A stretch of DNA of 63,334 bases, filler included, from Deltaproteobacteria bacterium (GTDB taxonomy: Bacteria > Myxococcota > JACRCW01): the NCBI GenBank assembly GCA_016218805.1. It is 4 parts of 4 records of this genome, joined end to end, with 100 filler letters (N's around TTAATTAATTAA, not from the genome) between each part and the next. Parts side by side here need not be neighbours in the genome. Positions count along the whole stretch, not along the records: positions 20,989 to 42,838 come from JACRCW010000144.1; 3 more parts are not named here. The stretch is one strand, 5' to 3'. Numbering within the stretch: the stretch's first letter is position 1; every line of letters starts with the position of its first letter. The position numbers and the translations under genes were made by a program. The notes beneath the pieces are model-generated. The model had not been told where the DNA came from. It saw only the letters and a program-made list of their open reading frames with translations, and made no database searches. This document shows, one piece after another, positions 8,171-53,134 of the stretch.

Positions 8171-9175
8171 ATGGCCAGTGTCCAGGGAGATGTCGTCGGG
8201 GCAAGAAACCGCTGGAACGCCAGCCGGTATGATCCGGCCAACCGGCGCGGGCATTTTGAGAGCTATTTCCAACGGGGCAACCACCCCACGCGCCCGCTGG
8301 CTTTCTGGCTGCGCTACACCAACTTTGTCCCCGTGGGAAAACCGGAGGCCGCTGAAGGCGAGCTGTGGGCCATGTGGTTTGACGGCGAGAAAGGCACGGT
8401 GGTCCGGGAATACCGCGCTTTGCCCATGGCGCAATGTGACTTTTCCCGCGCAGGGCTTTCAGTCCGCGTGGGTGACGCCAAGCTGGACGACACGACGGTG
8501 GTGGGCAGCGTGGGGTCCATGGCGTGGGATCTCCGCTATTCCGGCAAATCACCGCCCCTGCTGCTCTACCCGGAATCCTGGTATTCGGCGCCATTCCCCA
8601 AGACCAAGATCGTGGTGGGGACACCGCACGCGCTGTACACGGGCACGGTGCGCGTGGGCGGCGAGGAGCACAGCGTGGACGCGTGGCCGGGCAGCCAGGC
8701 GCACGTGTGGGCGCCCGTGCACGCGGAGTTCTACGCGTGGGGCCAGGTGTACGGTTTTGACGATCACCCCGAGGCCGCGCTGGAGTGGGCCACCGGGAAG
8801 CTCAAGGTGGGTCCGTTCCGGCTGCCGCCGCTGACGGGCGGCGTGCTGCGGCTGGACGGGCGTGACCACGCGCTCAATTCCATTGGCGCGGCGCTGCGGG
8901 CCAAGGGCCACTTCCAGGACCACCGCTGGGAATTCTCCGCGTCCACGCCGGAGCTGGCACTGCGTGGCGTGATGTCCGCGCCGGCGGCGCACTTTGCACG
9001 GCTGGAGTACCGCAATCCGCCGGGCGGTACCAAGACGTGCCTCAACACCAAGATTGCGCGCTGCGAGTTGTGGGTGACCCGCCCGGGTCAGCCAGAGTTG
9101 CACCTGGTGTCCCCTTGCCGTGGCGCGTTTGAGCTCCTGGGTGAGGCCTCCGCGCTGGCCGCGCTGGGCTTCTGA
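8171..9175 (+). CDS. Hypothetical protein, tocopherol-cyclase/AttH-like beta fold
   Basis: HFESYF..FWLRYT, WDL and GSQAHVW pattern typical of tocopherol-cyclase-like proteins; GGAG RBS. Confidence 0.55.
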   Translation: MASVQGDVVGARNRWNASRYDPANRRGHFESYFQRGNHPTRPLAFWLRYTNFVPVGKPEAAEGELWAMWFDGEKGTVVREYRALPMAQCDFSRAGLSVRVGDAKLDDTTVVGSVGSMAWDLRYSGKSPPLLLYPESWYSAPFPKTKIVVGTPHALYTGTVRVGGEEHSVDAWPGSQAHVWAPVHAEFYAWGQVYGFDDHPEAALEWATGKLKVGPFRLPPLTGGVLRLDGRDHALNSIGAALRAKGHFQDHRWEFSASTPELALRGVMSAPAAHFARLEYRNPPGGTKTCLNTKIARCELWVTRPGQPELHLVSPCRGAFELLGEASALAALGF

Positions 9176-9198
9176 CGGCCCGCGTAAGAACATCAAAC

Positions 9199-10188
9199 CT
9201 AGTAGAAGTTCTGCGTGTTCCAGGTTCCGGCCCACGTGCCCACGCCCAGATACGAGAACCCGCACCGCATGATGTTGCAGTGGTGCGACATCGCCGGGCA
9301 GTGATCCTCGTTGGCACCGCTCATGTACAGGTTCATCTCGCAGGCCTCATCACAGCCGTACGCGCAGTTCTGCCCCATGGGGTAGTCCGCGTGGAACAGG
9401 CCGCCGCGCTCCGCACATTGCTTGCTGTGGTTGCGTGCATGCGCGGACCACTCCAGGCTGTACGCCAAGGGCCCGTGGCATTCTCCGCTGCCCTCGTCGT
9501 CATGCGTGGCGCGCGTGAAGTTGACCAGTTCAAACATGCGGCATTCCTCGGGCAGGGGCTCAAACCAGGTGTCCGCGGTGCCGTCGCCGTCCACGTCGTA
9601 GTTGATTGCACCGCCGCGGCAGACCTCCGCCGTGGGCAGGCAGTCCATGCCCGCCGTGGATGACGGCGTGAAACCGGCGTCGCACGCGCACACCGGGTTG
9701 CCGCCCACCGCGCGGCAACTGCCGTGGCCCGAGCAGGCGACACCCTCACACGGGTTGGCGTCCGAGACGCACGCGAGTCCCACTTCATGGAAGCCCGTGT
9801 TGCAGTGGCATGCCGCCGTCCCGATGAACGGCTGCACCGCGCACGTTCCGTGACCGGAGCAGGTCACGCCGTCACACGGCCCATCCGCCACGCAGGACAG
9901 CCCGTCCGCGTGAAAGCCCGCGTTGCAGGCGCAGGACGCCACACCGGCCGCGGCCGCGCACGTGCCGTATCCCGCGCAGGTCACGCCCGCGCACGGGTCC
10001 ACCGCGGTGGACGAGGAGGAAACCGCGGCGGCACCGGAGGACCCGCCCCCCGAGCCGGACCCCGCCGCCGCGCTCCCGCTGCTCCCGCCGTCGACGGGGG
10101 ATGCCGTTCCGCCCTCCACGGCGCCGCACGCGGCGGACAGGCAGACCAACATGGCGGGGACGGGGCAGGAGCGGTGCAGGCGGGCCAT
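9199..10188 (-). CDS. Lipoprotein with three EGF-like repeats and a C-terminal CAP/SCP-like domain
   Basis: LSAAC lipobox, Ser/Gly linker, three C..VxC.G.G.C...C.C..GF repeats; ELVNFTR, ARNHS, HHCNIM and LGVG..WNTQNF are CAP motifs. Confidence 0.7.
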   Translation of the reverse strand: MARLHRSCPVPAMLVCLSAACGAVEGGTASPVDGGSSGSAAAGSGSGGGSSGAAAVSSSSTAVDPCAGVTCAGYGTCAAAAGVASCACNAGFHADGLSCVADGPCDGVTCSGHGTCAVQPFIGTAACHCNTGFHEVGLACVSDANPCEGVACSGHGSCRAVGGNPVCACDAGFTPSSTAGMDCLPTAEVCRGGAINYDVDGDGTADTWFEPLPEECRMFELVNFTRATHDDEGSGECHGPLAYSLEWSAHARNHSKQCAERGGLFHADYPMGQNCAYGCDEACEMNLYMSGANEDHCPAMSHHCNIMRCGFSYLGVGTWAGTWNTQNFY

Positions 10189-20888: not shown

Positions 20889-20988
20889 NNNNNNNNNNNN
20901 NNNNNNNNNNNNNNNNNNNNNNNNNNNNNNNNTTAATTAATTAANNNNNNNNNNNNNNNNNNNNNNNNNNNNNNNNNNNNNNNNNNNN
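20889..20988. other. Artificial contig linker
   Basis: N run + TTAATTAATTAA (stops in all six frames) + N run. Confidence 0.98.
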
Positions 20989-28486: not shown

Positions 28487-28615
28487 GTGCTGTACAGGTG
28501 TGCCCGTGCCACGGCGGCTCCCGCGTTGGGAGCGCTTTCCGAGGGCGAGAAGGGGTTGCACAAGTCCATGCTGACGCAGGAGACCACGCCGTCCAACGGC
28601 ACCAGGATCGCACCG

Positions 28616-29710
<1,095 letters not shown>

Positions 29711-29798
29711 GGGGGACGGACGTTCGAGAGGGAGCGATCCCTCGCGATGGGTGCCGCCACGCGCCGGGATCGCAGCCCCGGCGCGCGGCGGGCCCGGT

Positions 29799-30736
29799 TC
29801 ACCCGGGGGGAGTTCCAGCAGGGCCTGCACCAGCGGGCGGACCAGGTCAGGGTCGCGCATGGCGGTGAGCCAGCGGTCCGGGAGGGCGCGGATGCCGTCC
29901 CGCAGCCCGGCGATGCCGCCCGCTACACACGCGGTGGTGTCGGTGTCATTCCCCAGCGACACGGCGGCGCGCACCGCCGCTTCATAGCCGCGCCCGCTGA
30001 CCGCCCAGCGGGCGCTGTGCAGCGTGTCCACGACGTAACCGCTGCCGCGCGGGGGTTTCTCGCCGGCTGGGAGGATGACGGTGTGCAGCTCGTGGGCAAG
30101 GGCGGGGAGGTCCGCGTACAGCCCGGTGAGCGTGCGGACCGCGTCCTCCCACGGTTCAGGGTGCTCCTGGAGGATGCGGCGGGCCCACAGGCAGTAGAGG
30201 GCGCAGCAGGCCTGGGAGCGCGGGTGGGCGTGGGTGGGCAGGGACTGGCGGTGCGCGTCCAGGGCCAGGTCACGGTCCGTTCCCCGGTGCCAGGCCGCCA
30301 GCGGCAGGACGCGCATCAGGGCCCCGTTGCCGTTGTCCCGCTCGCCGTCCAGGCCGGAGCGCGCGGCCGGCGTGCCGGACCGGAAGCGGGCCAGCGCCTG
30401 GCGCGTGGTGATTCCCACGTCAAACACCAGGCCATCCACCGCCAGGTAGCCGTGCTCCAGCCAGTTGGCCAGGCGCCGGGCCAGGTCCTCCTCGTCCAGC
30501 CGGCCGCAGTGCAACAGCGAATCCAGCAGGCACAGTGCCTGGGCGCCGTCGTCACTCCAAGTGCCGGGGGCGATGCCACCGTGCGAGCGGCGGAACCCCG
30601 TCGGCGGGACCAGGTCGATGCGCTCCACGGAGGGCAGCGCGGACGCCTGCTGGAATTCGTACGGCACACCAACCGCGTCGCCCACCAGCAAGCCCCAGAT
30701 GCCTCCCTCCAGCCGCTCCGCCGTCGACAGCGTCAT
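29799..30736 (-). CDS. ADP-ribosylglycohydrolase (DraG/ARH family); 3' end uncertain, no in-frame stop until 28448
   Basis: GLLVGDAVGVPYEF, GTWSDD, FDVG, NGNGALMR, PTHAH, GNDTDTTACVAG; GAGGG RBS. Confidence 0.88.
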
Positions 30737-30755
30737 GTGAATTCCCTCTTGGGTG

Positions 30756-31743: not shown

Positions 31744-32301
31744 TCAGCAGCCGGTGCCGACGGGGCGGTCCCCACCGCCACCGCTGGGGCGCGACGGGGA
31801 CGCGCAACCGGTGGAAACGGGCCGCGAGGGCGTGGACGGCCGCGAGGGCGCGGGGGACGCGCAACCGGTGGAAACGGGCCGCGAAGGCGTGGACGGCCGT
31901 GAGGGCGCGGGGGACGCGCAACCGGTGGAAACGGGCCGCGAAGGCGCCGGCGAGGAACACCCGGTGGACACCGAGCCACCGTCGTCGGTGGGCTTCTTGG
32001 CCGCCACGTTCAGCAGGCGCGCGGCCAGCGGGGACAGGCGCTTGCGTTCCTCGGTATCCAGCTTGCCGTCGCGGTCCTTGTCCGCGCGCGTGACCTCGGT
32101 GCCAATCTGCTTGAGGGCCTGCTTGAGGCGCGGCACGCTGACCGACGAGGTGCAGCCGGTCTGCAGCGTCTTGGCCAGCTCCTTGAGCCCCTGCTGCTTG
32201 ATGGCGCCGACGTCGACGGAGCCCTTGGGGCCCACCTGCTTCTCAATGCGCTCCAGGGCGCGTTCCACGGGTAACATGCGGGCTTGGGCATTGATCTTCA
32301 T
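31744..32301 (-). CDS. Putative radical-SAM substrate/RiPP precursor with six TGC motifs and an EF-hand-like loop
   Basis: 185 aa (189 if started at ATG 32313, which overlaps the rSAM stop as TGATG); Cys only at QTGC, STGC x4 and the terminal GTGC; DKDRDGKLDTEE. Confidence 0.75.
   Translation of the reverse strand: MKINAQARMLPVERALERIEKQVGPKGSVDVGAIKQQGLKELAKTLQTGCTSSVSVPRLKQALKQIGTEVTRADKDRDGKLDTEERKRLSPLAARLLNVAAKKPTDDGGSVSTGCSSPAPSRPVSTGCASPAPSRPSTPSRPVSTGCASPAPSRPSTPSRPVSTGCASPSRPSGGGGDRPVGTGC
31797..31970. repeat. 57-nt coding tandem repeat (19 aa STGCASPAPSRPSTPSRPV)
   Basis: GCAACCGGTGGAAACGGGCCGCGA recurs at 31804, 31861 and 31918. Confidence 0.92.
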
Positions 32302-32312
32302 GATTCCCCTCA

Positions 32313-33635
32313 TCAGGTGACCACGCGCAGGTGGGGTCTTGTCGACGGTGCCGGCGGGGTCATCCCCGGGCGCGGGGAATAATGGCACCAACCGTCCGGG
32401 TCCGAAAGGCCGCCGCCGACGTGCAGGGCGCGGACGCGGCAGCCGCCACGGCACGTTTCGTAATGGAGGCAGGTGGCGCAGTAGGGGCCGGGGGCGGCCG
32501 CGCGCAGGTCCAGGAACGTGCTGCCGCCCGCCCACAGTTGGGCGAGTGACGACGTCCGCACGTTCCCCGCGATGAAGCTGCCCGGCAGGTTGAGGCACGG
32601 GGTGACGTCCCCCGTGGGGGCAATGCCCAGCACCACGCGGGAGGCCACGCAGCCGAACCCGTCGAAACCGGGGATGCCCTGCTCATGCGGGTGGGGCGCG
32701 TCCAGCGCCAGGCCCAGCGCTTCGGCGCGTGGGCGGGCGGCGTCCACCGCGCGGGCGAACGTGTCGCGGTCACAGGTGAGGCTGTCGTCATGGCGGGCTT
32801 CGCCGGCGGGGTAGGCGGGGCGCAGCAGCAGCACGCGCGCGCCGACGCGGTGGGCCAGCTCCACCAGGCCCGGGGTGGTGGCGGCGTTGTGCGGGGTGAT
32901 GGTGACGTTGAGGTTGAACCCCGGTGGGTAGGCGGTGCGCAGGCGCTCCATGCCGCGCAGCGTGCTGGCAAACGTGCCTTCACCGCGGATGGCGTCGTTG
33001 GTGGCGGGATCCGGACCGTCCAGGCTCACGGCCAGCCCGGCCGGCGGGCAGCGCGCCAGCTCGGACAGCGCCTCGTCACGCAGCAGCGACGCGTTGGTGT
33101 GCACGTAGGCGTCCACCCCCAGCCCATGCGCGTGCCGGACCATGGCGGCGAGGTCCCGGCGGAGGAACGGCTCACCGCCACCCAGCACCAGCTTCATGCA
33201 CCCGGCCGCCGCCAGCTGCCCGGTGAGCGCGCGGATCTCGTCGAGCGTGAGTTCGCCCGGCGCGCGCCGGCCCGAGGAGGAATAGCAGTGCGCGCAGGAG
33301 TAGTTGCACGCCAGCGTCACACCCAGGTGCGCCACCAGCGGCGCGCCGAACGCCCCGGGGACCTCCGGTGGCTCCACCACGCGCCCGGCGAACACCCCGT
33401 CGTCGTCGAGCGCGCCCAGCTCGCGCAGGGTCCGGGCGGTGTCGGTGGCCGTGTCACCGTCGGTGCGGTCGGCGAGCAGCGCCACGGCGGAGTCCGCGCC
33501 GATATCCTGGGCCGCGGTGAGCAGGAACGCCTCGGCGGCGGTGCGGCGCGTGTAGGCGTGCGCGGCGCGGTCATACAGCAGGGGCGGGCCCTGGGCCTCC
33601 ACGCGCAGCGTGAAGGGAAAGGGTGGGGCGCTCAC
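32313..33635 (-). CDS. Radical SAM/SPASM-domain protein with RRE/PqqD-like N-terminus
   Basis: CNYSCAHC (CxxxCxxC), LGGGEPF, VSLDG; 7-Cys SPASM C-x17-C...CATCLHYETCRGGC-x17-C; GTG start overlaps the alr stop (GTGA). Confidence 0.9.
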   Translation of the reverse strand: MSAPPFPFTLRVEAQGPPLLYDRAAHAYTRRTAAEAFLLTAAQDIGADSAVALLADRTDGDTATDTARTLRELGALDDDGVFAGRVVEPPEVPGAFGAPLVAHLGVTLACNYSCAHCYSSSGRRAPGELTLDEIRALTGQLAAAGCMKLVLGGGEPFLRRDLAAMVRHAHGLGVDAYVHTNASLLRDEALSELARCPPAGLAVSLDGPDPATNDAIRGEGTFASTLRGMERLRTAYPPGFNLNVTITPHNAATTPGLVELAHRVGARVLLLRPAYPAGEARHDDSLTCDRDTFARAVDAARPRAEALGLALDAPHPHEQGIPGFDGFGCVASRVVLGIAPTGDVTPCLNLPGSFIAGNVRTSSLAQLWAGGSTFLDLRAAAPGPYCATCLHYETCRGGCRVRALHVGGGLSDPDGWCHYSPRPGMTPPAPSTRPHLRVVT

Positions 33636-34801
33636 GCGCGGGACTCGGGGCCGTTGAGGGTGCTGGTGGCCACCACGCGGCCGCCGCGCAGGTACAGGCG
33701 GGGCACGCGCTCGCGGACCCCGGCCAGGATCTCCCAGGAGATGCTGTCCGCCCACGTGGCCAGGTCATCCGCGTCAATGCGGTCACTGCCCTGCTCACCG
33801 AGCAGGACCACCTCGTCGCCCGCGGAGACGCCCTCAATGTGCGTGACGTCCACCATGCACATGTCCATGGCCACGCGGCCGGCGATGGGCGCGCGTTCGC
33901 CGCGGATGAGCACCTGCGCGCGGCCCGACAGGCGCCGCATCAGCCCGTCCGCGTAGCCGGCCATCACCAGCGCCACGGTGGCGGGCAGCTCCGCGCGCCA
34001 GGTGCGCCCGTAACCCACCGTGGCGCCCGGCGGCAGCGCGCTCACACGCACCACGCGGCTCTTGAGGGAGAGCACACGCTGGAGCGGCACGTCCACGCCG
34101 CAGCGCGGGGCGGGGTGGTAGCCGTACAGACCCAGGCCCGTGCGCACCAGTTCCAAACGCATTTCCGGGTTGTCCAGCACGCTGGCGGTGGCCGCGCAGT
34201 GGCGCAGCGGGATCCACGGCAGGCGCGTGTGCGCGTCCACCAGGCGCTGGAACTGCTGGCGCGTGAAGGTCTTGTCGCCCTCCTCGGCCGCGGCAAAGTG
34301 CGTGAACAGTCCTTCAATGACGATGCGCGGCAGCGCGCGCATGCGCTCCGCGGCCGGTACCAACGTGTCCGGCACCAGGCCGTGGCGGTTGAGCCCCGTC
34401 TCCACCTCCAGGTGCACCGGCTGGTCCACGTTGGCGCGCGCCGCCTCCCGGCTCAGGGCGTCCGCCAGCGCCGGGTCATGCACGCTGGGCGTCAGGGCAT
34501 GCGCCACCACGTCACGCGCCTGGGCTTCCGGCGTGAAGCCCAGCACCAGGATGGGCGCGCGGAGGCCCGCGCGGCGCAGCTGGATGCCCTCGTCCACGCA
34601 GATGACCGCCAGCCGTTCCGCGCCCGCCTGCACCGCCGCGCGCGCCACCTCCACCGCACCGTGGCCGTACGCGTTGGCCTTCACCACCGCGCACAGCCGC
34701 GCGGGCGCGGCGCGTTCGCGCAGCACCGTCACGTTGTGCGCCAGCGCGTCAAGGTCAATCTCCGCCCACACCGGGCGGCCCTGCCATGGGGGGGAGGACA
34801 T
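33632..34801 (-). CDS. alr: Alanine racemase
   Basis: AVVKANAYGHG (PLP lysine), ETGLNRHG, FTHFA, VGYGRTW, GYADG, GRVAMD. Confidence 0.93.
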   Translation of the reverse strand: MSSPPWQGRPVWAEIDLDALAHNVTVLRERAAPARLCAVVKANAYGHGAVEVARAAVQAGAERLAVICVDEGIQLRRAGLRAPILVLGFTPEAQARDVVAHALTPSVHDPALADALSREAARANVDQPVHLEVETGLNRHGLVPDTLVPAAERMRALPRIVIEGLFTHFAAAEEGDKTFTRQQFQRLVDAHTRLPWIPLRHCAATASVLDNPEMRLELVRTGLGLYGYHPAPRCGVDVPLQRVLSLKSRVVRVSALPPGATVGYGRTWRAELPATVALVMAGYADGLMRRLSGRAQVLIRGERAPIAGRVAMDMCMVDVTHIEGVSAGDEVVLLGEQGSDRIDADDLATWADSISWEILAGVRERVPRLYLRGGRVVATSTLNGPESRA

Positions 34802-36436: not shown

Positions 36437-37138
36437 ATGACGCAGGTCCGACTGTACCGTCTCAACAGCATCCCGGAGGTCACGCCGTGGCCCGGCCGGT
36501 GGATGCTGAGCGCCCAAGAAGTGGCCCGCTCCAACCGTTGGCTCAACCCCGCACGCCGCAACGAGTTCCTGTGGGGCCGCGCCCTGATGCGCTACGTGAT
36601 GGCCCAGCACGGGGTTCCCCGCACCGCGCTGAAGTTTGCCCCGGGTGGCAAGCCGTTTCTGGAGGCCGGTGGTGACCTGAACCTGTCCCACGGCGCCGGC
36701 CAGGTCCTGGTGGGCTACTGCCCTGAAGGGTGGCTGGGCGTGGACGTGGAGACCCACGCGCCGCGCGACACGACGCTGATGGAGCGCTTCTTCCACGGCC
36801 ACGAACGCGACTGGATGGGGCAGGACACCGCGCGCCTGCACCGCCTGTGGACGGTGAAGGAGAGCGCGCTCAAGGCGCTGGGCACCGGCGTGTCCGGCAA
36901 CCCCGCGCGTGTGTGGTTTGACCCGGCGGGCGGCGGCATCACCGTGATGGACGCGCCGGTGCCGCAGGCCTGTGATGCCTGGTGGATGGAGGGCGACGGC
37001 TGGACCGCGGCCGCCGTCCACGTGCGGGTGAGCGCGCACGCCCCGCGCGCGCAATGGGAACAGTGCCACCTCACTGCGTCCGACGTGCTGGGTTGGATGG
37101 AGCGCTCGGGCCGGACGGAGGCGAGGGTTCAGGCATGA
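36437..37138 (+). CDS. 4'-phosphopantetheinyl transferase (Sfp type, PfaE-like)
   Basis: GKP, NLSH, GVDVE, WTVKESALKA; GGAGG RBS. Confidence 0.9.
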   Translation: MTQVRLYRLNSIPEVTPWPGRWMLSAQEVARSNRWLNPARRNEFLWGRALMRYVMAQHGVPRTALKFAPGGKPFLEAGGDLNLSHGAGQVLVGYCPEGWLGVDVETHAPRDTTLMERFFHGHERDWMGQDTARLHRLWTVKESALKALGTGVSGNPARVWFDPAGGGITVMDAPVPQACDAWWMEGDGWTAAAVHVRVSAHAPRAQWEQCHLTASDVLGWMERSGRTEARVQA

Positions 37139-38778
37139 CGACGATGGCGGTGGATGGCGCGGCCACGACGACGGGGCGCCGCGCGCTGGGGCGTTGGACC
37201 GGGGATGCGGCGGCGCTGCAGTTCGGCCCGCAGGGACTGGTGAACGCGCTGCAGGCGGTGGACCAGGTGGCGTACTTTGTGGACGCCGGCGGCGAGGTGG
37301 CCGCGGCGCTCTCCGGTGAAGCGCACGTGGGCCGGACCACCGGCGGCGGGCACGCGCTGCTGGGCGTGGTGCCGCCCGTCTCTCCGCAGGCGCTGGGTGA
37401 CCCCGCGTTCCTGCACGTCCATGCGCTTGCCTACCCGTACATGACCGGCGCCATGGCCAACGGCATTGCCAGCGCGGACCTGGTCATTGCTGCGGGGAAG
37501 AACGGCCTGCTGGGCAGCTACGGCGCCGCCGGCCAGCCGCTGGACCGGGTGGAACAGGACGTGGGCCGCATCCAGGCCGCGCTGCCGGGCCTGCCCTACG
37601 CGGTGAACCTCATCCACAGCCCCAATGAGCCTGGCATTGAACAGCGCACCATGGAGCTGTTCATCCGCATGGGCGTGACGACGGTGGAAGCCAGCGCCTA
37701 CCTGGGCCTCACACCCATGATCGTGCAGTACCGGCTCACCGGGCTCACGCGCGGTGCGGACGGGTTTGTCGTGGCCCGGCACCGGGTCATTGCCAAGATC
37801 AGCCGCTCGGAAACCGCGCGGCAGTTCATGGCGCCCGCACCCGAGGCGATGGTGCAGGCGCTGCTCCGGGACGGGAAGATCACCGCCGCGGAGGCGGAGC
37901 TGGCCCGGGACATTGCCGTGGCGGACGACGTGATTGTGGAGGCGGACAGCGGCGGGCACACGGACAACCGCCCGCTGGTGGTGCTGCTGCCCATCATCCT
38001 GCACCTGCGTGACACGCTGGGAACGCGCGGGACCCACGGCTACCCGGTGCGCGTGGGCGCGGCGGGCGGCATCAGCACGCCGGCCTCCGTGGCCAGCGCG
38101 TTCCAGATGGGGGCCGCGTTTGTGGTCACCGGCAGCGTGAACCAGGCGGCCGTGGAAAGCGGTACCAGCGCGCGCGCGCGCCAGATGCTGTGCCAGGCGG
38201 ACATGGCGGACGTGACCATGGCGCCGGCCGCGGACATGTTTGAGATGGGCGTGAAGCTGCAGGTGCTCAAGAAGGGCACCATGTTCGCCATGCGCGCGCA
38301 GAAGCTCCATGACCTGTACCGCGCGCATGATTCGCTGGACGCGATTCCCGCCGACGAGTTGAAGCGGCTGGAGACGCAGGTGTTCAAGCGCAGCGCCGCC
38401 GAGGTGTGGGCGGACACGCAGCGCTACTGGCAGAAGATGGACCCCAAGCAGGTGGACCGTGCGCTGGCCAATCCCAAGCACAAGATGGCGCTGTGCTTCC
38501 GCTGGTACCTGGGGCTGGGCAGCCGCTGGGCCATTGGTGGCGACGACACGCGCGCCATGGACTACCAGGTGTGGTGCGGCCCCGCGATGGGCGCGTTCAA
38601 TGACTGGGTGAAAGGCACGGTGCTGGACCCGCCGGAGGCGCGCCGCACCGTGCAGATTGCCCGCAACCTGCTGGACGGCGCGGCGGCCATCACGCGCGCG
38701 CACGTGGCGCGTTCGCAGGGTGTGCCGGTTCCTGAAGAAGCTTTCCAATTCATTCCCCGCGCCTATCCCGTTGCCTGA
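37135..38778 (+). CDS. pfaD: PUFA synthase enoyl reductase (PfaD/Pfa1)
   Basis: GAMANGIAS, NLIHSP, VEASAY, EADSGGHTD, GAAGGI, APAADMFEMG, FRWY, QVWCGPAMGAFN; ATGA overlap. Confidence 0.93.
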   Translation: MTTMAVDGAATTTGRRALGRWTGDAAALQFGPQGLVNALQAVDQVAYFVDAGGEVAAALSGEAHVGRTTGGGHALLGVVPPVSPQALGDPAFLHVHALAYPYMTGAMANGIASADLVIAAGKNGLLGSYGAAGQPLDRVEQDVGRIQAALPGLPYAVNLIHSPNEPGIEQRTMELFIRMGVTTVEASAYLGLTPMIVQYRLTGLTRGADGFVVARHRVIAKISRSETARQFMAPAPEAMVQALLRDGKITAAEAELARDIAVADDVIVEADSGGHTDNRPLVVLLPIILHLRDTLGTRGTHGYPVRVGAAGGISTPASVASAFQMGAAFVVTGSVNQAAVESGTSARARQMLCQADMADVTMAPAADMFEMGVKLQVLKKGTMFAMRAQKLHDLYRAHDSLDAIPADELKRLETQVFKRSAAEVWADTQRYWQKMDPKQVDRALANPKHKMALCFRWYLGLGSRWAIGGDDTRAMDYQVWCGPAMGAFNDWVKGTVLDPPEARRTVQIARNLLDGAAAITRAHVARSQGVPVPEEAFQFIPRAYPVA

Positions 38779-38791
38779 GGAAACCCGCTTC

Positions 38792-41700
38792 ATGACAACC
38801 AGCTCCGCGAAGTCCTCCCAGGGTGGTACCGCACCGCAGGAAATGTTTGACGCCAACGAGCCCATTGCCATCATTGGCATGGCGGCGCTGTTCCCCAAGG
38901 CGGCGGACCTGGGGCAGTACTGGCGCAACATTGTGAACAAGGAGGATTGCATCAGCGAAGTGCCCGCCACCCACTGGAGCATTGACGACTATTACGACCC
39001 GGACCCCAAGGCGCCGGACAAGACGTACTGCAAGCGGGGCGGGTTCATCCCCGACGTGAAGTTTGACCCCGCGGCGTTTGGCATCCCGCCGCACGTGGTC
39101 AAGGCCACGGACACCGGCCAGTTGCTGGGGCTGCACGTGGCCGCGGCGGCTCTCAAGGACGCGCGCCTGGAAGAAAAGAAGGAATTTGACCGGGACATGT
39201 GCAACGTGATCCTGGGGGTTGGCGGCGGGCAGGAGCAGGGCCGGACGCTGGACAACCGCATCCGCACGCCGGTGTGGCGCCGCACCATGATTGAACAGGG
39301 TGTGGACCCCGCGGTGGCGGACAGCCTGTGCAAGGCGATTGCGGCGCAATTCCCGCAATGGGAGGAGAACAGCTTCCCCGGCCTGCTGGGCAATGTGGTC
39401 AGCGGGCGCATTGCCAACCGCCTCAACCTGGGGGGCACCAACCTCACCGTGGACGCGGCGTGCGCCTCCGGACTGGCCGCCGCGCACACCGCGGTGGCGG
39501 AGCTGCGCGGGCGGCTGGCCAACATCAGCCTCACGGGCGCCGTGGACGCGGACAATGACGTGTTCATGTTCATGTGCTTCTCCAAGACGCCCGCGTTCAG
39601 CGCCTCCAATGAAGCGCGGCCGTTTGACGCCAAGGGCGACGGCATCCTGATTGCCGAGGGCGTGGGCATGTGCGTGCTCAAGCGCCTGGCGGACGCCGAA
39701 CGCGACGGCGACCGCATCTACGCGGTCATCCGCTCCATCGGGACCAGCTCGGACGGGCGCTACAAGTCCATCTACGCGCCCAACCCGGACGGGCAATCCA
39801 AGGCGTTGCACCGCGCGTACACCATGGCGGGTTTTTCGCCGGAGACCGTGGAGCTGGTGGAGGCGCACGGCACCGGGACCAAGGCCGGGGATTTTGCGGA
39901 ATTCTCCGGGCTCAACCGCGCGTTCCGGCAGTACAAGGCGGAAGGCCAGTGGTGCGCGCTGGGCAGCGTCAAGAGCCAGATTGGCCACAGCAAGGGCGTG
40001 GCGGGGATTGCCGGGCTCATCAAGGCGGTGATGGCGGTGCATGAGAAGGTGCTGCCGCCCACCATCAAGGTGACCGAGCCCAACCCGAAGATGGAGATTG
40101 AAAAGACGCCATTCTACCTCAACACCGAGGCGCGGCCGTGGTTCCGTCCCACCGGCAGCCACCCGCGGCGCGCGGGGGTGTCCGCGTTTGGTTTTGGCGG
40201 CACCAACTTCCACTGCGTGTTGGAGGAGTACGTCCAGCCCGCGGGCCAGGAGCCCGCGCTCACCGTGCCCGCGCCCACCGCGCTGTTTGTGCTGGGCGGG
40301 CAGACGGGAACGGACGTGGTCCGCCTGGCGGATGCGCTGGAGGCGGTGCTGCACAAGGACCCGGACGCGTTCCGCCGCGAGGCGCACCGTACGCAGAAGA
40401 CCTCCGTGCGCGGTGAGAAGGCGATTCTCTCCGTTGTGGCGTCGTCCGTGGCGGACCTGTCCGAGAAGCTGGCGCTGGCCCGGCGCCACATTGCCGCCAG
40501 CCCCGAGCAGATCTTCACCCAGGCCGGCGGCGTGTTCTACGGCTGGCGCGTGGACGGGAACGTGGCCCCCAAGGTGGCCGTGCTGTTCCCGGGCCAGGGC
40601 AGCCAGTACGTCAACATGGGCATGCAGTGGGCGCTGCGGTACCCGGAGGTACGCCGCGCGTTTGAAGACGCGGACCGCCTGATGCTGGAGGCGGGCGAAA
40701 CACCGCTCAGCCAGGTGGCGTTCCCGCACCCCACCTTCACCCGGGATTCCGGTGACACCGATGACAAGCGGCTCACCGAGACGCGGTGGGCCCAGCCCGC
40801 GCTGGGCGCGCTGTCCATGGGCCTGTATGACGTGCTGAAGAAACTCGGACTTTCGGCGGATTTCTTTGGTGGGCACAGCTACGGCGAATTGGCCGCATTG
40901 TGGGCGGCGGGCGTGCTGGGGAAGGATGATTTCCTTGCCTTGTCCCGCGCGCGCGGCACGCTGATGGGCCAGGCCGCCAGTGCGCTGGAGCGCTCCGGCA
41001 TGAGTTCCGCGCAGGGTCCCGTGGCCACCATGCAGCACGTGCTCCCGTCACTGAGCCGCGACGTGATTGTGGCGAACATCAACAGCCCGGAACAGTGCGT
41101 CATTGCCGGGCCGGTGGCGGAATTGCAGCGCATCCAGGGCTCCCTGGAAACGCAGGGATTCCTTGTGTCACCGCTCAACGTGTCCGCCGCGTTCCACAGC
41201 CCGTTTGTGGCGGCCGCCAAGGACCCGTTCTCCGCGGCGTTGCGCAAGGCGAGCTTTGGCCACGCGCGCAAACCCGTGTTTTCCAACGTGACGGCCAAGC
41301 CGTACCCGGCCAACGGCGCCGGACGCGACGTGCTGGCGGACCAGTTGGTCAAACCGGTGAACTTCCTGGGCCTGGTGCAGGAGATGTATGACTCCGGCGC
41401 GCGCGTGTTCCTGGAGGTGGGCGCCAAGGGAGTGCTGTCCGGCCTGGTGTCCCGCATCCTGGGCGACAAGCCGCACGCCGCCGTGGCCATGGACGCCTCC
41501 GCGGGCAAGACGCACGGGGACACGGCCATGCAGCTTGCCGTGGCGCAGTTGGTGTCACGCGGTGTGCACCTGGACCTCAACTACCTGGTTGACCGCGACC
41601 CGACCACGGAGCTCAAGCCGCGCGAACCCAACACCGCGACGACCATCACCATTCGCGGCCCGAACCCCAAGGCCAACCCGCCGCCCGCGCCCAAGAACCC

Positions 41701-42838
41701 ACCGCGGATTGGCCTGGTTACCACGACGGGCAGCGCCACGGTGTCCGCACCCGCACCGGCGGTTGCGCCCCCTCCCACGCCCACCGTGTCCGCGGCGCCG
41801 CGGCCCACGCCGCCGCCCCCACCACCGCCGCCCCGCGCGGCGGCCCCGGCCCCAACCACCATCATTCCTTCCATCATCCCCGCGCCGGCCACGGAACGCA
41901 TCACGTCCGTCCCGACGCCCACCGTGCAGGTCATCTCTCCCATGACAAACCCCACCAATCCCCCCAATCCCGCGCTGCTGATGTCCACGCAGGCCGCGCT
42001 TGCCGCGTTCCAGGCGCACCAGCAGCAGATGGCCATGGTGCACCATGAATTCCTGCGCGCGAGCCAGGAGGCGATGCGCACGTTCACCACGCTGTTTGAA
42101 GCGCACGCGCGCCAGATGGCGGGCGCGGGGGTCCCGCAGCTCCCGCCGCCGGCGATGACCACGCCGCCCCCGACGCTGCAGCCCATCACCGTCTACCCCT
42201 CCGTGTACACCCAGGCCGCGCCGGTGGCGGCGCCCCCGCCTCCCGTTGCGCCCGTGGTCACCGCGGCGCCTCCTCCTCCCCCGCGCGTGGTGGCGCCGGC
42301 GCCGGTTTCCATGCCGCCGCCCGCGCCCGTCGTGGCGGCCCGTCCCACACCGCCGCCCCCGCCCGCCCCTCGCCCCGCGGCTGCTGCAGCGGGTCCCGCG
42401 CAGGCGGAGCTTTCCAACGCGCTGCTCTCCGTGGTCAGTGAAAAGACCGGCTATCCGCAGGACATGCTGAAGCTGGACATGGACATGGAAGCGGATTTGG
42501 GAATTGACAGCATCAAGCGCGTGGAGATCCTGGGCGCCATGCAGGCAAAGTTCCCCAACGCGCCCAAGGTGGAGACGGAGAAACTGGGCGAATTGCACAC
42601 GCTGCAGCAGATCCTTGAATACCTGGCCCGCGGTGCCGCGGCGCCGGTGGCCGCCCGTCCCGCGGCTCCGGTGGCCGCCCCCGCCGCGGCGCCGGGCATT
42701 TCCACGTCAGAGATGACGCAGGGACTGCTGGCGGTGGTGAGCGAAAAGACCGGCTATCCCGTGGACATGCTGAAGCTGGAAATGGACATGGAGGCGGACC
42801 TGGGGATTGACAGCATCAAGCGCGTGGAAATCCTGGGC
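38792..42838 (+). CDS. pfaA: PUFA synthase/iterative type I PKS (PfaA/Pfa2-like): KS-MAT-tandem ACP; truncated at contig end
   Basis: KS DAACAS, EAHGTGT, KSQIGH; AT FPGQG, GHSYG, SAAFHS; two ACPs EKTGYP..LGIDSIKRVEIL. Confidence 0.9.
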
Positions 42839-42938
42839 NNNNNNNNNNNNNNNNNNNNNNNNNNNNNNNNNNNNNNNNNNNNTTAATTAATTAANNNNNN
42901 NNNNNNNNNNNNNNNNNNNNNNNNNNNNNNNNNNNNNN
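42839..42938. other. Artificial contig linker
   Basis: N/TTAATTAATTAA/N. Confidence 0.98.
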
Positions 42939-53034: not shown

Positions 53035-53134
53035 NNNNNNNNNNNNNNNNNNNNNNNNNNNNNNNNNNNNNNNNNNNNTTAATTAATTAANNNNNNNNNN
53101 NNNNNNNNNNNNNNNNNNNNNNNNNNNNNNNNNN
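53035..53134. other. Artificial contig linker
   Basis: N/TTAATTAATTAA/N. Confidence 0.98.

Follow-up and report, generated by a model that had tools for sequence, protein, structure and literature searches.

Few radical SAM enzymes are known to modify whole proteins. QhpD is a radical SAM-SPASM enzyme that crosslinks Cys residues, through Cys-to-Asp/Glu links, inside the small protein QhpC, which remains a subunit. Anaerobic sulfatase maturases act on sulfatase substrates with a CxPxR motif and have a fully ligated auxiliary cluster I (AuxI), and in the mycofactocin enzyme MftC, which acts on the C-terminal residue of MftA, an extra Cys is a cluster ligand. Canonical 12-residue EF-hand loops within a helix-loop-helix occur in calmodulin and lanmodulin, with Pro at loop position 2 in lanmodulin. 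In the CrpA/CrpC system of Methanococcus voltae, a protein that has an N-terminal domain and repeats of a Cys motif is encoded next to an RRE-radical SAM-SPASM enzyme whose SPASM Cys follow a 3+4 pattern; CrpC puts thioethers on a protein, and the product is described as a modified protein rather than a peptide (PMC13692751). CrpA itself is Cys-rich, with C-X-X-Q/D motifs in which the acceptors come after the Cys (PMC13692751). The known substrates of the sactisynthases SkfB, StsB, GggB, QmpB, and KgrC and of the ranthisynthase CteB, in contrast, are short exported peptides, among whose sactionine rings sizes of two to four residues are known from enteropeptin, suisactin, and streptosactin (PMC13361665); StsB is also MftC-like in its full sequence (PMC10288494). 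Double-glycine leaders such as Nif11 and proteusin/NHLP combine a long N-terminal region, a GG, and a Cys-bearing tail, and the PCAT peptidases need hydrophobic residues at positions -4, -7, and -12 (PMC10885120).

The genes described here lie in a stretch of 63,334 nucleotides, the whole of which was analysed and is called the window. It joins separate contigs, since one contig accounts for positions 20989-42838 only, and runs of N stand at 20889-20988, 42839-42938, and 53035-53134. The two genes, whose features are collected in Table 1, likely form a pair of an RRE-radical SAM-SPASM enzyme and a protein substrate, of a known kind and an unnamed family. By its sequence features the substrate ORF is a real gene: it starts 11 nt past the stop of the radical SAM gene, just behind a ribosome-site-like GAGGGG stretch, and its GC3 is 0.92 over codons 1-105 and 0.84 over codons 106-185. 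Upstream of the pair, an alanine racemase gene (33632-34801, minus strand) overlaps the start codon of the enzyme gene, and a convergent metallophosphoesterase gene lies downstream; with these neighbours, the statement in the initial annotation that the operon holds no peptidase or exporter is borne out. The racemase was rejected as a component of the system, as it is present in this one of 26 loci and in none of the 25 others. The substrate has no evident signal peptide, as had also been said, a hydropathy scan (no signal-peptide predictor) giving no hydrophobic N-terminal stretch and a best 11-residue value of 0.34. Unlike that of QhpC and QhpD, the locus is without amine dehydrogenase genes, protease, or transporter, and the Cys motif is without an acidic acceptor.

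Table 1. Positions of the substrate gene, the enzyme gene, and their parts along the window
Feature	Position	Strand	Remarks
Substrate gene, 185 aa	31744..32301	-	EF-hand domain and Ser/Pro/Gly-rich tail; six [S/T]GC motifs, the last at the C-terminus
Predicted folded helical domain, residues 1-101	31999..32301	-	AlphaFold2; unnamed family, 75 distinct members gathered
Internal loop motif LQTGC, residues 46-50	32152..32166	-	Cys50 near-invariant, between helices 2 and 3
EF-hand loop DKDRDGKLDTEE, residues 74-85	32047..32082	-	D74 in 71/75, E85 in 74/75, strict pattern in 51/75 gathered
Last helix LSPLAARLLNVA, residues 89-100	32002..32037	-	Candidate enzyme-recognition helix (inferred)
Gly108-Gly109	31975..31980	-	Present, not conserved; cleavage site unsupported
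Predicted disordered tail, residues 110-185	31747..31974	-	Five V[S/G]TGC motifs; AlphaFold2 and sequence
Radical SAM-SPASM enzyme, 440 aa	32313..33635	-	CxxxCxxC at 110-117; SPASM Cys 329, 347, 386, 389, 395, 399, 417
N-terminal RRE-like module, residues 8-73	33417..33614	-	Predicted: three strands, then three helices

The N-terminal domain of the substrate had been described as helical and basic over its first ~105 residues, and a structure prediction for residues 1-105 had been proposed. AlphaFold2, run on a 13-row alignment, predicts a folded helical domain over residues 1-101 (pLDDT 89-95 per block of ten) followed by a disordered tail, and residues 1-105 hold 22 Lys/Arg against 12 Asp/Glu. 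The EF-hand-like loop reported earlier proves to have the canonical ligands D74, D76, D78, D82, and E85, with Gly at position 6 (G79) and a hydrophobic residue at position 8 (L81). It is flanked by predicted helices 56-73 and 83-87, random shuffling of residues 1-105 produced a strict EF pattern 18 times in 200,000, and the profile of the domain family matches calmodulin and lanmodulin loops with E ~1e-6. No Pfam family reached its cut-off with the substrate (the EF-hand family PF13202 scored 14.3 bits against 25.9), NCBIfam gave no match, neither collection gave a Nif11 or NHLP match, and neither had a family name for any substrate tested. Fold searches with the substrate model returned no significant match (best Z 4.9, best Foldseek E 0.021) and the ESM Atlas gave only EF-hand leads below 0.9; the likeness of the domain to lanmodulin is weak (Foldseek E 0.021, rmsd 5.7; Z 4.8). 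In contrast to calmodulin and lanmodulin, the domain has one intact loop, no significant whole-fold match, and a Cys loop of its own, and it is without the Pro of lanmodulin at loop position 2. A search of titles and abstract openings, mostly outside subscription journals, found no paper on the substrate family, members of which may be listed in the supplements of PMC10288494 and PMC13692751. PMC8692599 was set aside as a candidate, the EF-hand being named there in a reference only.

The relatives of the substrate were reached via the enzyme, a single-sequence search with residues 1-110 having returned only the self-match among 31 candidates. In a domain-family profile search the best 150 of 3,039 matches were taken; with earlier profile matches and two translations this made 157 proteins screened, of which 74 covered the domain, and the addition of two members by hand and removal of one multi-EF protein of 1,135 aa left the 75 gathered. 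A hydrophobic N-terminal stretch is seen in one of the 75 and a start resembling M-x-I/V-x-K-P in 42, and Cys content is ~1% across the family. About two-thirds of the members (P0078-P0185, ~300 aa) have a conserved, unannotated region of 150 aa between the EF domain and the C-terminal Cys. Two EF-domain substrates (L183:5600-6268, minus strand; L184:5837-6502, plus strand) have an extra N-terminal helical region of 75 aa and are transcribed away from the enzyme. One may conjecture that an EF-hand without a signal peptide suits modification in the low-Ca2+ cytoplasm, with folding after a non-Sec release.

The enzyme scores above the Pfam cut-offs for PF04055 and PF13186 and below the cut-off of each of its best 25 NCBIfam families. 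Its top NCBIfam score is to MftC (TIGR03962; 177.5 bits against a cut-off of 265), followed among those compared by StsB (119.8 against 625), by TIGR04103 and TIGR03913 (80 and 86 against 725 and 592), which we take to be splicease-like families, and by SkfB (69.6 against 300); TIGR04463, the family to compare for CrpC, is not among the best 25. The fold of the enzyme model matches SuiB, SkfB, CteB, and PqqE, with Foldseek matches near full-length to SuiB and CteB and E values of 7e-19 to SkfB and 4e-17 to CteB. The predicted N-terminal module would be an RRE judging by these fold matches and by the order of its predicted elements, from which the label derives. A homologue search at E 1e-60 or better listed 65 proteins, namely the enzyme itself and 64 relatives of 47-65% identity, and the named ones are mostly Myxococcota or Deltaproteobacteria; by sequence, the enzyme is a member of an unnamed Myxococcota clade. 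All 61 full-length members of this clade have the seven SPASM Cys. Three of these (C329, C347, C399) would form a three-Cys AuxI, the cluster occupancy being inferred, and no Cys stands between the first two in 61 of 61; the extra Cys that five of five MftC-like sequences have seven residues past the first AuxI Cys is found in none of the 61. The residues in catalytic proximity, as defined in PMC10288494, read Y-G-H-S-L-N at all six positions in 15 of 15 loci, with the five counted positions kept in 59 of 61 members. They agree at two of six positions each with StsB (Y-T-I-S-K-L in PMC10288494) and SkfB (Y-T-F-S-Q-L) and at one with CteB (F-F-T-S-H-Q). A complex prediction of enzyme residues 1-425 and substrate residues 1-132 with SAM and three clusters gave 0.13 and 0.01 against a mark of 0.32.

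The enzyme can be compared with several described classes. It is like CrpC in the features named above; unlike in CrpA, the Cys of the substrate ends the motif and often the protein, Cys makes up ~1% of the residues, and the EF-hand N-terminal domain has its own site. With MftC, its best-scoring family, the enzyme shares a G-GGEP motif, seven SPASM Cys, and, as proposed here, action at a C-terminal residue, yet it falls below the cut-off, belongs to a separate clade, has a fused RRE-like module and other proximity residues, and does not have the extra Cys, and no MftA-like peptide ending in CGVY stands beside it; a control locus (L097) scores 592.9 bits to TIGR03962 and has such a CGVY-ending peptide. 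With the sactisynthases and CteB it has in common the fold and the three-Cys AuxI, and a small ring such as the one proposed has precedent in known sactionines, but the family scores are below cut-off and the proximity residues agree poorly with those of StsB, SkfB, and CteB. Spliceotide formation by a tyramine splicease does not fit as a class, as the substrate has no Tyr, splicease-family scores are low, and an XYG site is confined to the protein encoded beside the enzyme at two loci of a subclade. The anaerobic sulfatase maturase likewise does not fit, the substrate having no CxPxR and AuxI only three Cys; formylglycine chemistry as such, apart from that class, may still apply.

Evidence for pairing comes from the genomes surveyed. 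A GTDB scan yielded 14 close loci among 79 listed, which together with the window give 15 loci of the enzyme clade. A TGC-motif gene directly adjoins the enzyme in 13 of them, five times with the EF domain, where the protein ends in a Cys motif and in one case lies upstream of the enzyme, and eight times without it; across 26 loci, no gene except enzyme and substrate recurs in more than three. Searched with the domain profile, 401 genomes gave 20 matches, or 19 full-domain ones once a partial match was set aside. The loop Cys is present in 17 of the 19, and 16 of these 17 adjoin a related enzyme by HMM; the neighbour of the seventeenth is an ORF cut off where the contig ends, which by eye looks like the start of the enzyme but did not score. 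These counts are small numbers from related genomes, and because 13 of the 17 matches were first found via the enzyme, only four are independent. The search for paralogues proposed in the initial annotation found no paralogue of the domain in its own genome and did find homologues elsewhere, including two that are Cys-less. These two, one of them a weak match (31 bits), have no related enzyme within 19 kb and 10.7 kb, the radical SAM genes near them being unrelated (40 and 47 bits against 175 or more). At another locus (L177), a related enzyme has no recognisable substrate within 9.2 kb. On this evidence, the enzyme very probably acts on the 185-aa protein.

A quick tree (67 rows), on which all branching statements made here are based, sorts more distant enzymes of ~30% identity into two additional groups with good support; it does not fix the order in which these groups and MftC branch. 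Eleven of the 12 rows of the first group stand beside larger EF-domain proteins, while the nine rows of the second stand beside a gene of ~200 aa with CEVPAGCGG (16 of 17 matches, the seventeenth a fragment). The second lineage (L236:872-3767, plus strand; L228-L243; L249-L265) occurs in Myxococcota, complete genomes included, is without the AuxII Cys, has no NCBIfam name above cut-off, and sits between the CEVPAGCGG gene and a gene for an FGE-sulfatase domain. A metagenome scan gave 80 loci, all of them outside the close clade and with identities of 25-46%; of 11 checked, five have an MftA-like peptide.

The target sites share a common form. Cys residues of the substrate stand at positions 50, 115, 128, 147, 166, and 185, the last being C-terminal. 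The single QTGC that had been noted as isolated is present at residues 47-50 but is more than an isolated motif, as it is the most conserved site of the family, with its Cys in 73 of the 75 gathered proteins. This loop Cys and the C-terminal Cys share the motif V-x-[S/T/G]-[G/S]-C, with Gly or Ser immediately before the Cys in 52 and 16 of 73 loop motifs and in 40 and 17 of 65 C-terminal motifs. Gly follows the Cys in 45 of the 73 loop motifs. The 65 proteins with a Cys within the last three residues leave ten, some of which may be fragments, and both proteins without the loop Cys also are without the terminal one (2/75). Just two motifs are present in 44 of the 75, mostly with ~200 or more residues between them. 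The tail of the window's protein, in contrast, looks multiplied: a 57-nt tandem array (31787-31946) of 2.8 copies with 96% match takes in three of its five motifs, and the two complete units differ from each other at two third-codon positions. With one to five tail Cys among 12 close relatives, these near-identical units agree with the recent expansion proposed at the outset. A point against in-place modification is that access to Cys50, which belongs to a short loop predicted with confidence, may be difficult when the domain is folded.

What the enzyme would hold on to may be the last helix of the domain. A counterpart of LSPLAARLLNVA occurs mid-protein, with Cys motifs on both sides, in seven of the eight substrates that lack the EF domain; its score is reached by 0-7 of 400 shuffles in these seven, and the eighth fails (285 of 400). 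The helix is thus a candidate for binding the enzyme. The eight EF-less substrates are of 75-121 aa, one of them cut by a contig end, are rich in Lys, Ser, and Thr, and have three to five TGC motifs. Seven of their loci group in one fork nested inside the clade, the eighth standing apart, which is consistent with loss of the EF domain. Downstream of the short substrate (L022:7635-8769, plus strand; L019:7603-7908 and 8590-9459, plus strand; L028) lie a small Pro-rich protein with repeated VNSP/MNSP and a 289-aa protein that has ExxH-type motifs and looks like a diiron enzyme, without a Pfam or NCBIfam match; the gene of the 289-aa protein is present in three loci, and the two are possibly a second peptide-modifying pair.

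Taken together, the reading that we favour, and which as a whole has about an even chance of being right, is that each V-x-[S/T]-G-C motif is modified in place, likely to a small thioether ring, on a protein that stays whole with its EF-hand. The helix that follows the EF loop would serve as the docking site of the enzyme, and the iron left open in the three-Cys AuxI would be bound by a motif Cys; the 5'-deoxyadenosyl radical would then abstract a hydrogen one to three residues upstream and a C-S bond would form, at a cost of 2 Da per site (-2 Da). Sites of the reaction would be Cys50 in the loop, the motifs of the tail, and the terminal Cys, with the EF-hand domain as a Ca2+-stabilised scaffold that displays the loop site. 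The thioether chemistry, taken by itself, could go either way. It is favoured for the Cys-centred motif, the three-Cys AuxI without the extra Cys of MftC, the CrpA/CrpC precedent, and the small sactionine rings already known; counting against it, the proximity residues fit neither sactisynthases nor CteB well, the best family score is to an enzyme that makes no thioether, two enzymes of the same clade adjoin a Tyr-motif protein, and no acceptor position is invariant. A local reaction is favoured over Cys-Cys pairing or a loop-to-terminus staple, because two complete genes with the loop Cys only (L178 and L186) still stand beside the enzyme.

The chief rival keeps the same pair and the whole protein and replaces ring formation by MftC- or anSME-like abstraction of a beta-carbon hydrogen and oxidation at the motif residue, which we regard as somewhat unlikely. 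With the same low likelihood, its products would be a quinone methide from Tyr and, from Cys, a thioaldehyde that would go on to formylglycine or an enethiol, the carboxyl group being lost where the Cys is C-terminal. MftC being the top family match, such chemistry has a model in MftC, which proceeds via a Tyr quinone methide, and in Cys decarboxylases, which proceed via a thioaldehyde (PMC11350588), and the motif lies within the last three residues in most gathered proteins. The second distant lineage, between its EVPAGCGG gene and the FGE-sulfatase-domain gene, points the same way. So does a Tyr-motif neighbour: two clade enzymes without a TGC neighbour lie tail to tail with an unannotated gene (L026:7360-8274 and L025:7329-8576, both minus strand) whose products are 55% identical over 260 aa and carry VNTGYG, INTGYG, and VRDGYG or VSNSYG in the register of the Cys motif (VNTGYG, INTGYG, and VSNSYG aligning with VSTGCG). 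Of 401 genomes, two have this neighbour, and they are exactly the ones with that enzyme subclade, whose members share the proximity residues Y-G-H-S-L-N. With Tyr in the same register beside two close enzymes, MftC-like oxidation is therefore a serious rival, and if the neighbour is a substrate, a beta-carbon reaction explains both residues better. The Tyr case, however, consists of two loci and a putative substrate, the enzyme differs from MftC in the extra Cys and at four of six proximity positions (L-G-S-S-P/A-F in MftC), internal sites cannot decarboxylate, and the quick tree does not resolve a link to MftC. Matches of the neighbour to the EF domain are too weak to be credible (3.3 and 1.6 bits), and a search without a positive control found no short TGC substrates in the two genomes. 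A broader proposal, which we consider doubtful, would have MftC-related enzymes across the Myxococcota edit folded proteins at an exposed small-small-X turn by an undescribed reaction of Cys or Tyr, whether beta-carbon oxidation or backbone rearrangement; if true, the product would be a Ca2+-binding scaffold armed with reactive groups at the loop tip and the C-terminus, guided by an internal helix serving both sides.

Other chemistry at the backbone, either a splicease-like excision to a ketoamide or an epimerisation, is quite improbable. The Tyr-type neighbour does carry XYG, the splicease motif (PMC11414181). Gly often follows the loop Cys, and spliceases are helix-activated and can act on proteins; nonetheless, the enzyme's 80 and 86 bits to the splicease-like families compare with ~300 bits for the enzyme of YG peptides in a relative, no Gly follows the C-terminal Cys, and we know of no excision reaction at Cys. 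That the Cys stay free, binding metal or forming disulfides while the enzyme acts elsewhere or on some sites, is very improbable: the common two-Cys layout could form one disulfide and the domain has its weak likeness to lanmodulin, but the tail Cys, spaced 13-19 residues apart, have neither CxxC nor His or acidic partners, presence of the loop Cys goes together with presence of the enzyme, one-Cys members exist, and disulfide formation would not call for a shared motif ahead of both Cys. The initial annotation had offered two readings, a Ca2+-binding leader cut at GG by a protease encoded elsewhere or an intact protein with a multiply crosslinked, metal-binding tail; of the latter, the intact modified protein fits best and nothing found supports the metal-binding tail. 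The former, extended to cutting at GG or elsewhere with release of modified cores, is improbable. DDGG does stand, as reported, at residues 106-109 directly before the first SVSTGC, the tail resembles a multi-core precursor in its repeats and its predicted disorder, and the EF-less substrates look peptide-like. Including this protein, though, GG lies nine or fewer residues before the first tail Cys in only four of 12 close relatives (slightly farther in a fifth) and is missing there in eight; it occurs in Gly/Ser-rich linkers, and its columns are unconserved across the 75 gathered members. The residues at -4, -7, and -12 are D106, K103, and N98, none of them hydrophobic as PCAT peptidases need. 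The proposed genome-wide search for a C39 peptidase-ABC transporter gave no C39 match in the 92%-complete genome (control positive in 7 of 14); C39 domains are present in three of five other carrier genomes, with no match in the other two, and the 26 loci have no protease or transporter in common. There is, moreover, no cleavage motif between the repeats, the commonest layout sets two motifs far apart, and the domain has a conserved site of its own. Homologues thus divide what had been expected to be conserved together, the EF-hand residues being kept and the GG not.

The lack of GG conservation among relatives makes it likely that the protein stays whole, and cleavage at GG probably does not take place. 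A GG after a long N-terminal domain hence need not mark a leader, and here the supposed leader itself carries a target, since QTGC is the most conserved site and shares its motif with the C-terminal Cys; nor is the N-terminal domain a plain leader, given that it holds this motif and that eight of 15 clade loci have substrates without the domain. For in-place modification of the motifs, the two genes offer a minimal test case: the motif is short and portable, an internal helix is a candidate for recognition by the enzyme, and natural controls exist in Cys-less homologues without enzyme, in EF-less, one-site, and six-site substrates, and in a possible Tyr variant. The motif could yield a tag for site-specific protein modification.

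Several other genes were noticed. In a relative, an unrelated radical SAM enzyme (L185:3631-5430, plus strand) scores ~300 bits to TIGR04103 and TIGR03913, under cut-off, and is followed by three spliceotide-like peptides of 55-64 aa with a common leader and YG repeats. The one full FHIPEP gene of the genome (L247:1429-3552, minus strand) lies among flagellar-looking genes, flhB- and flhF-like as read from sequence. Within the window, a gene like those for ADP-ribosylglycohydrolases (29747-30742, minus strand; 142.6 bits to Tri1, under cut-off) is convergent with a gene read as recA-like at 28568-29710. Positions 36437-42838 (plus strand) hold a PfaD-family gene and a PfaA-type synthase gene above NCBIfam cut-offs, with an apparent phosphopantetheinyl transferase gene upstream of the PfaD-family gene, and this region, as its genes read, is a polyunsaturated fatty acid synthase cluster truncated where the contig stops.
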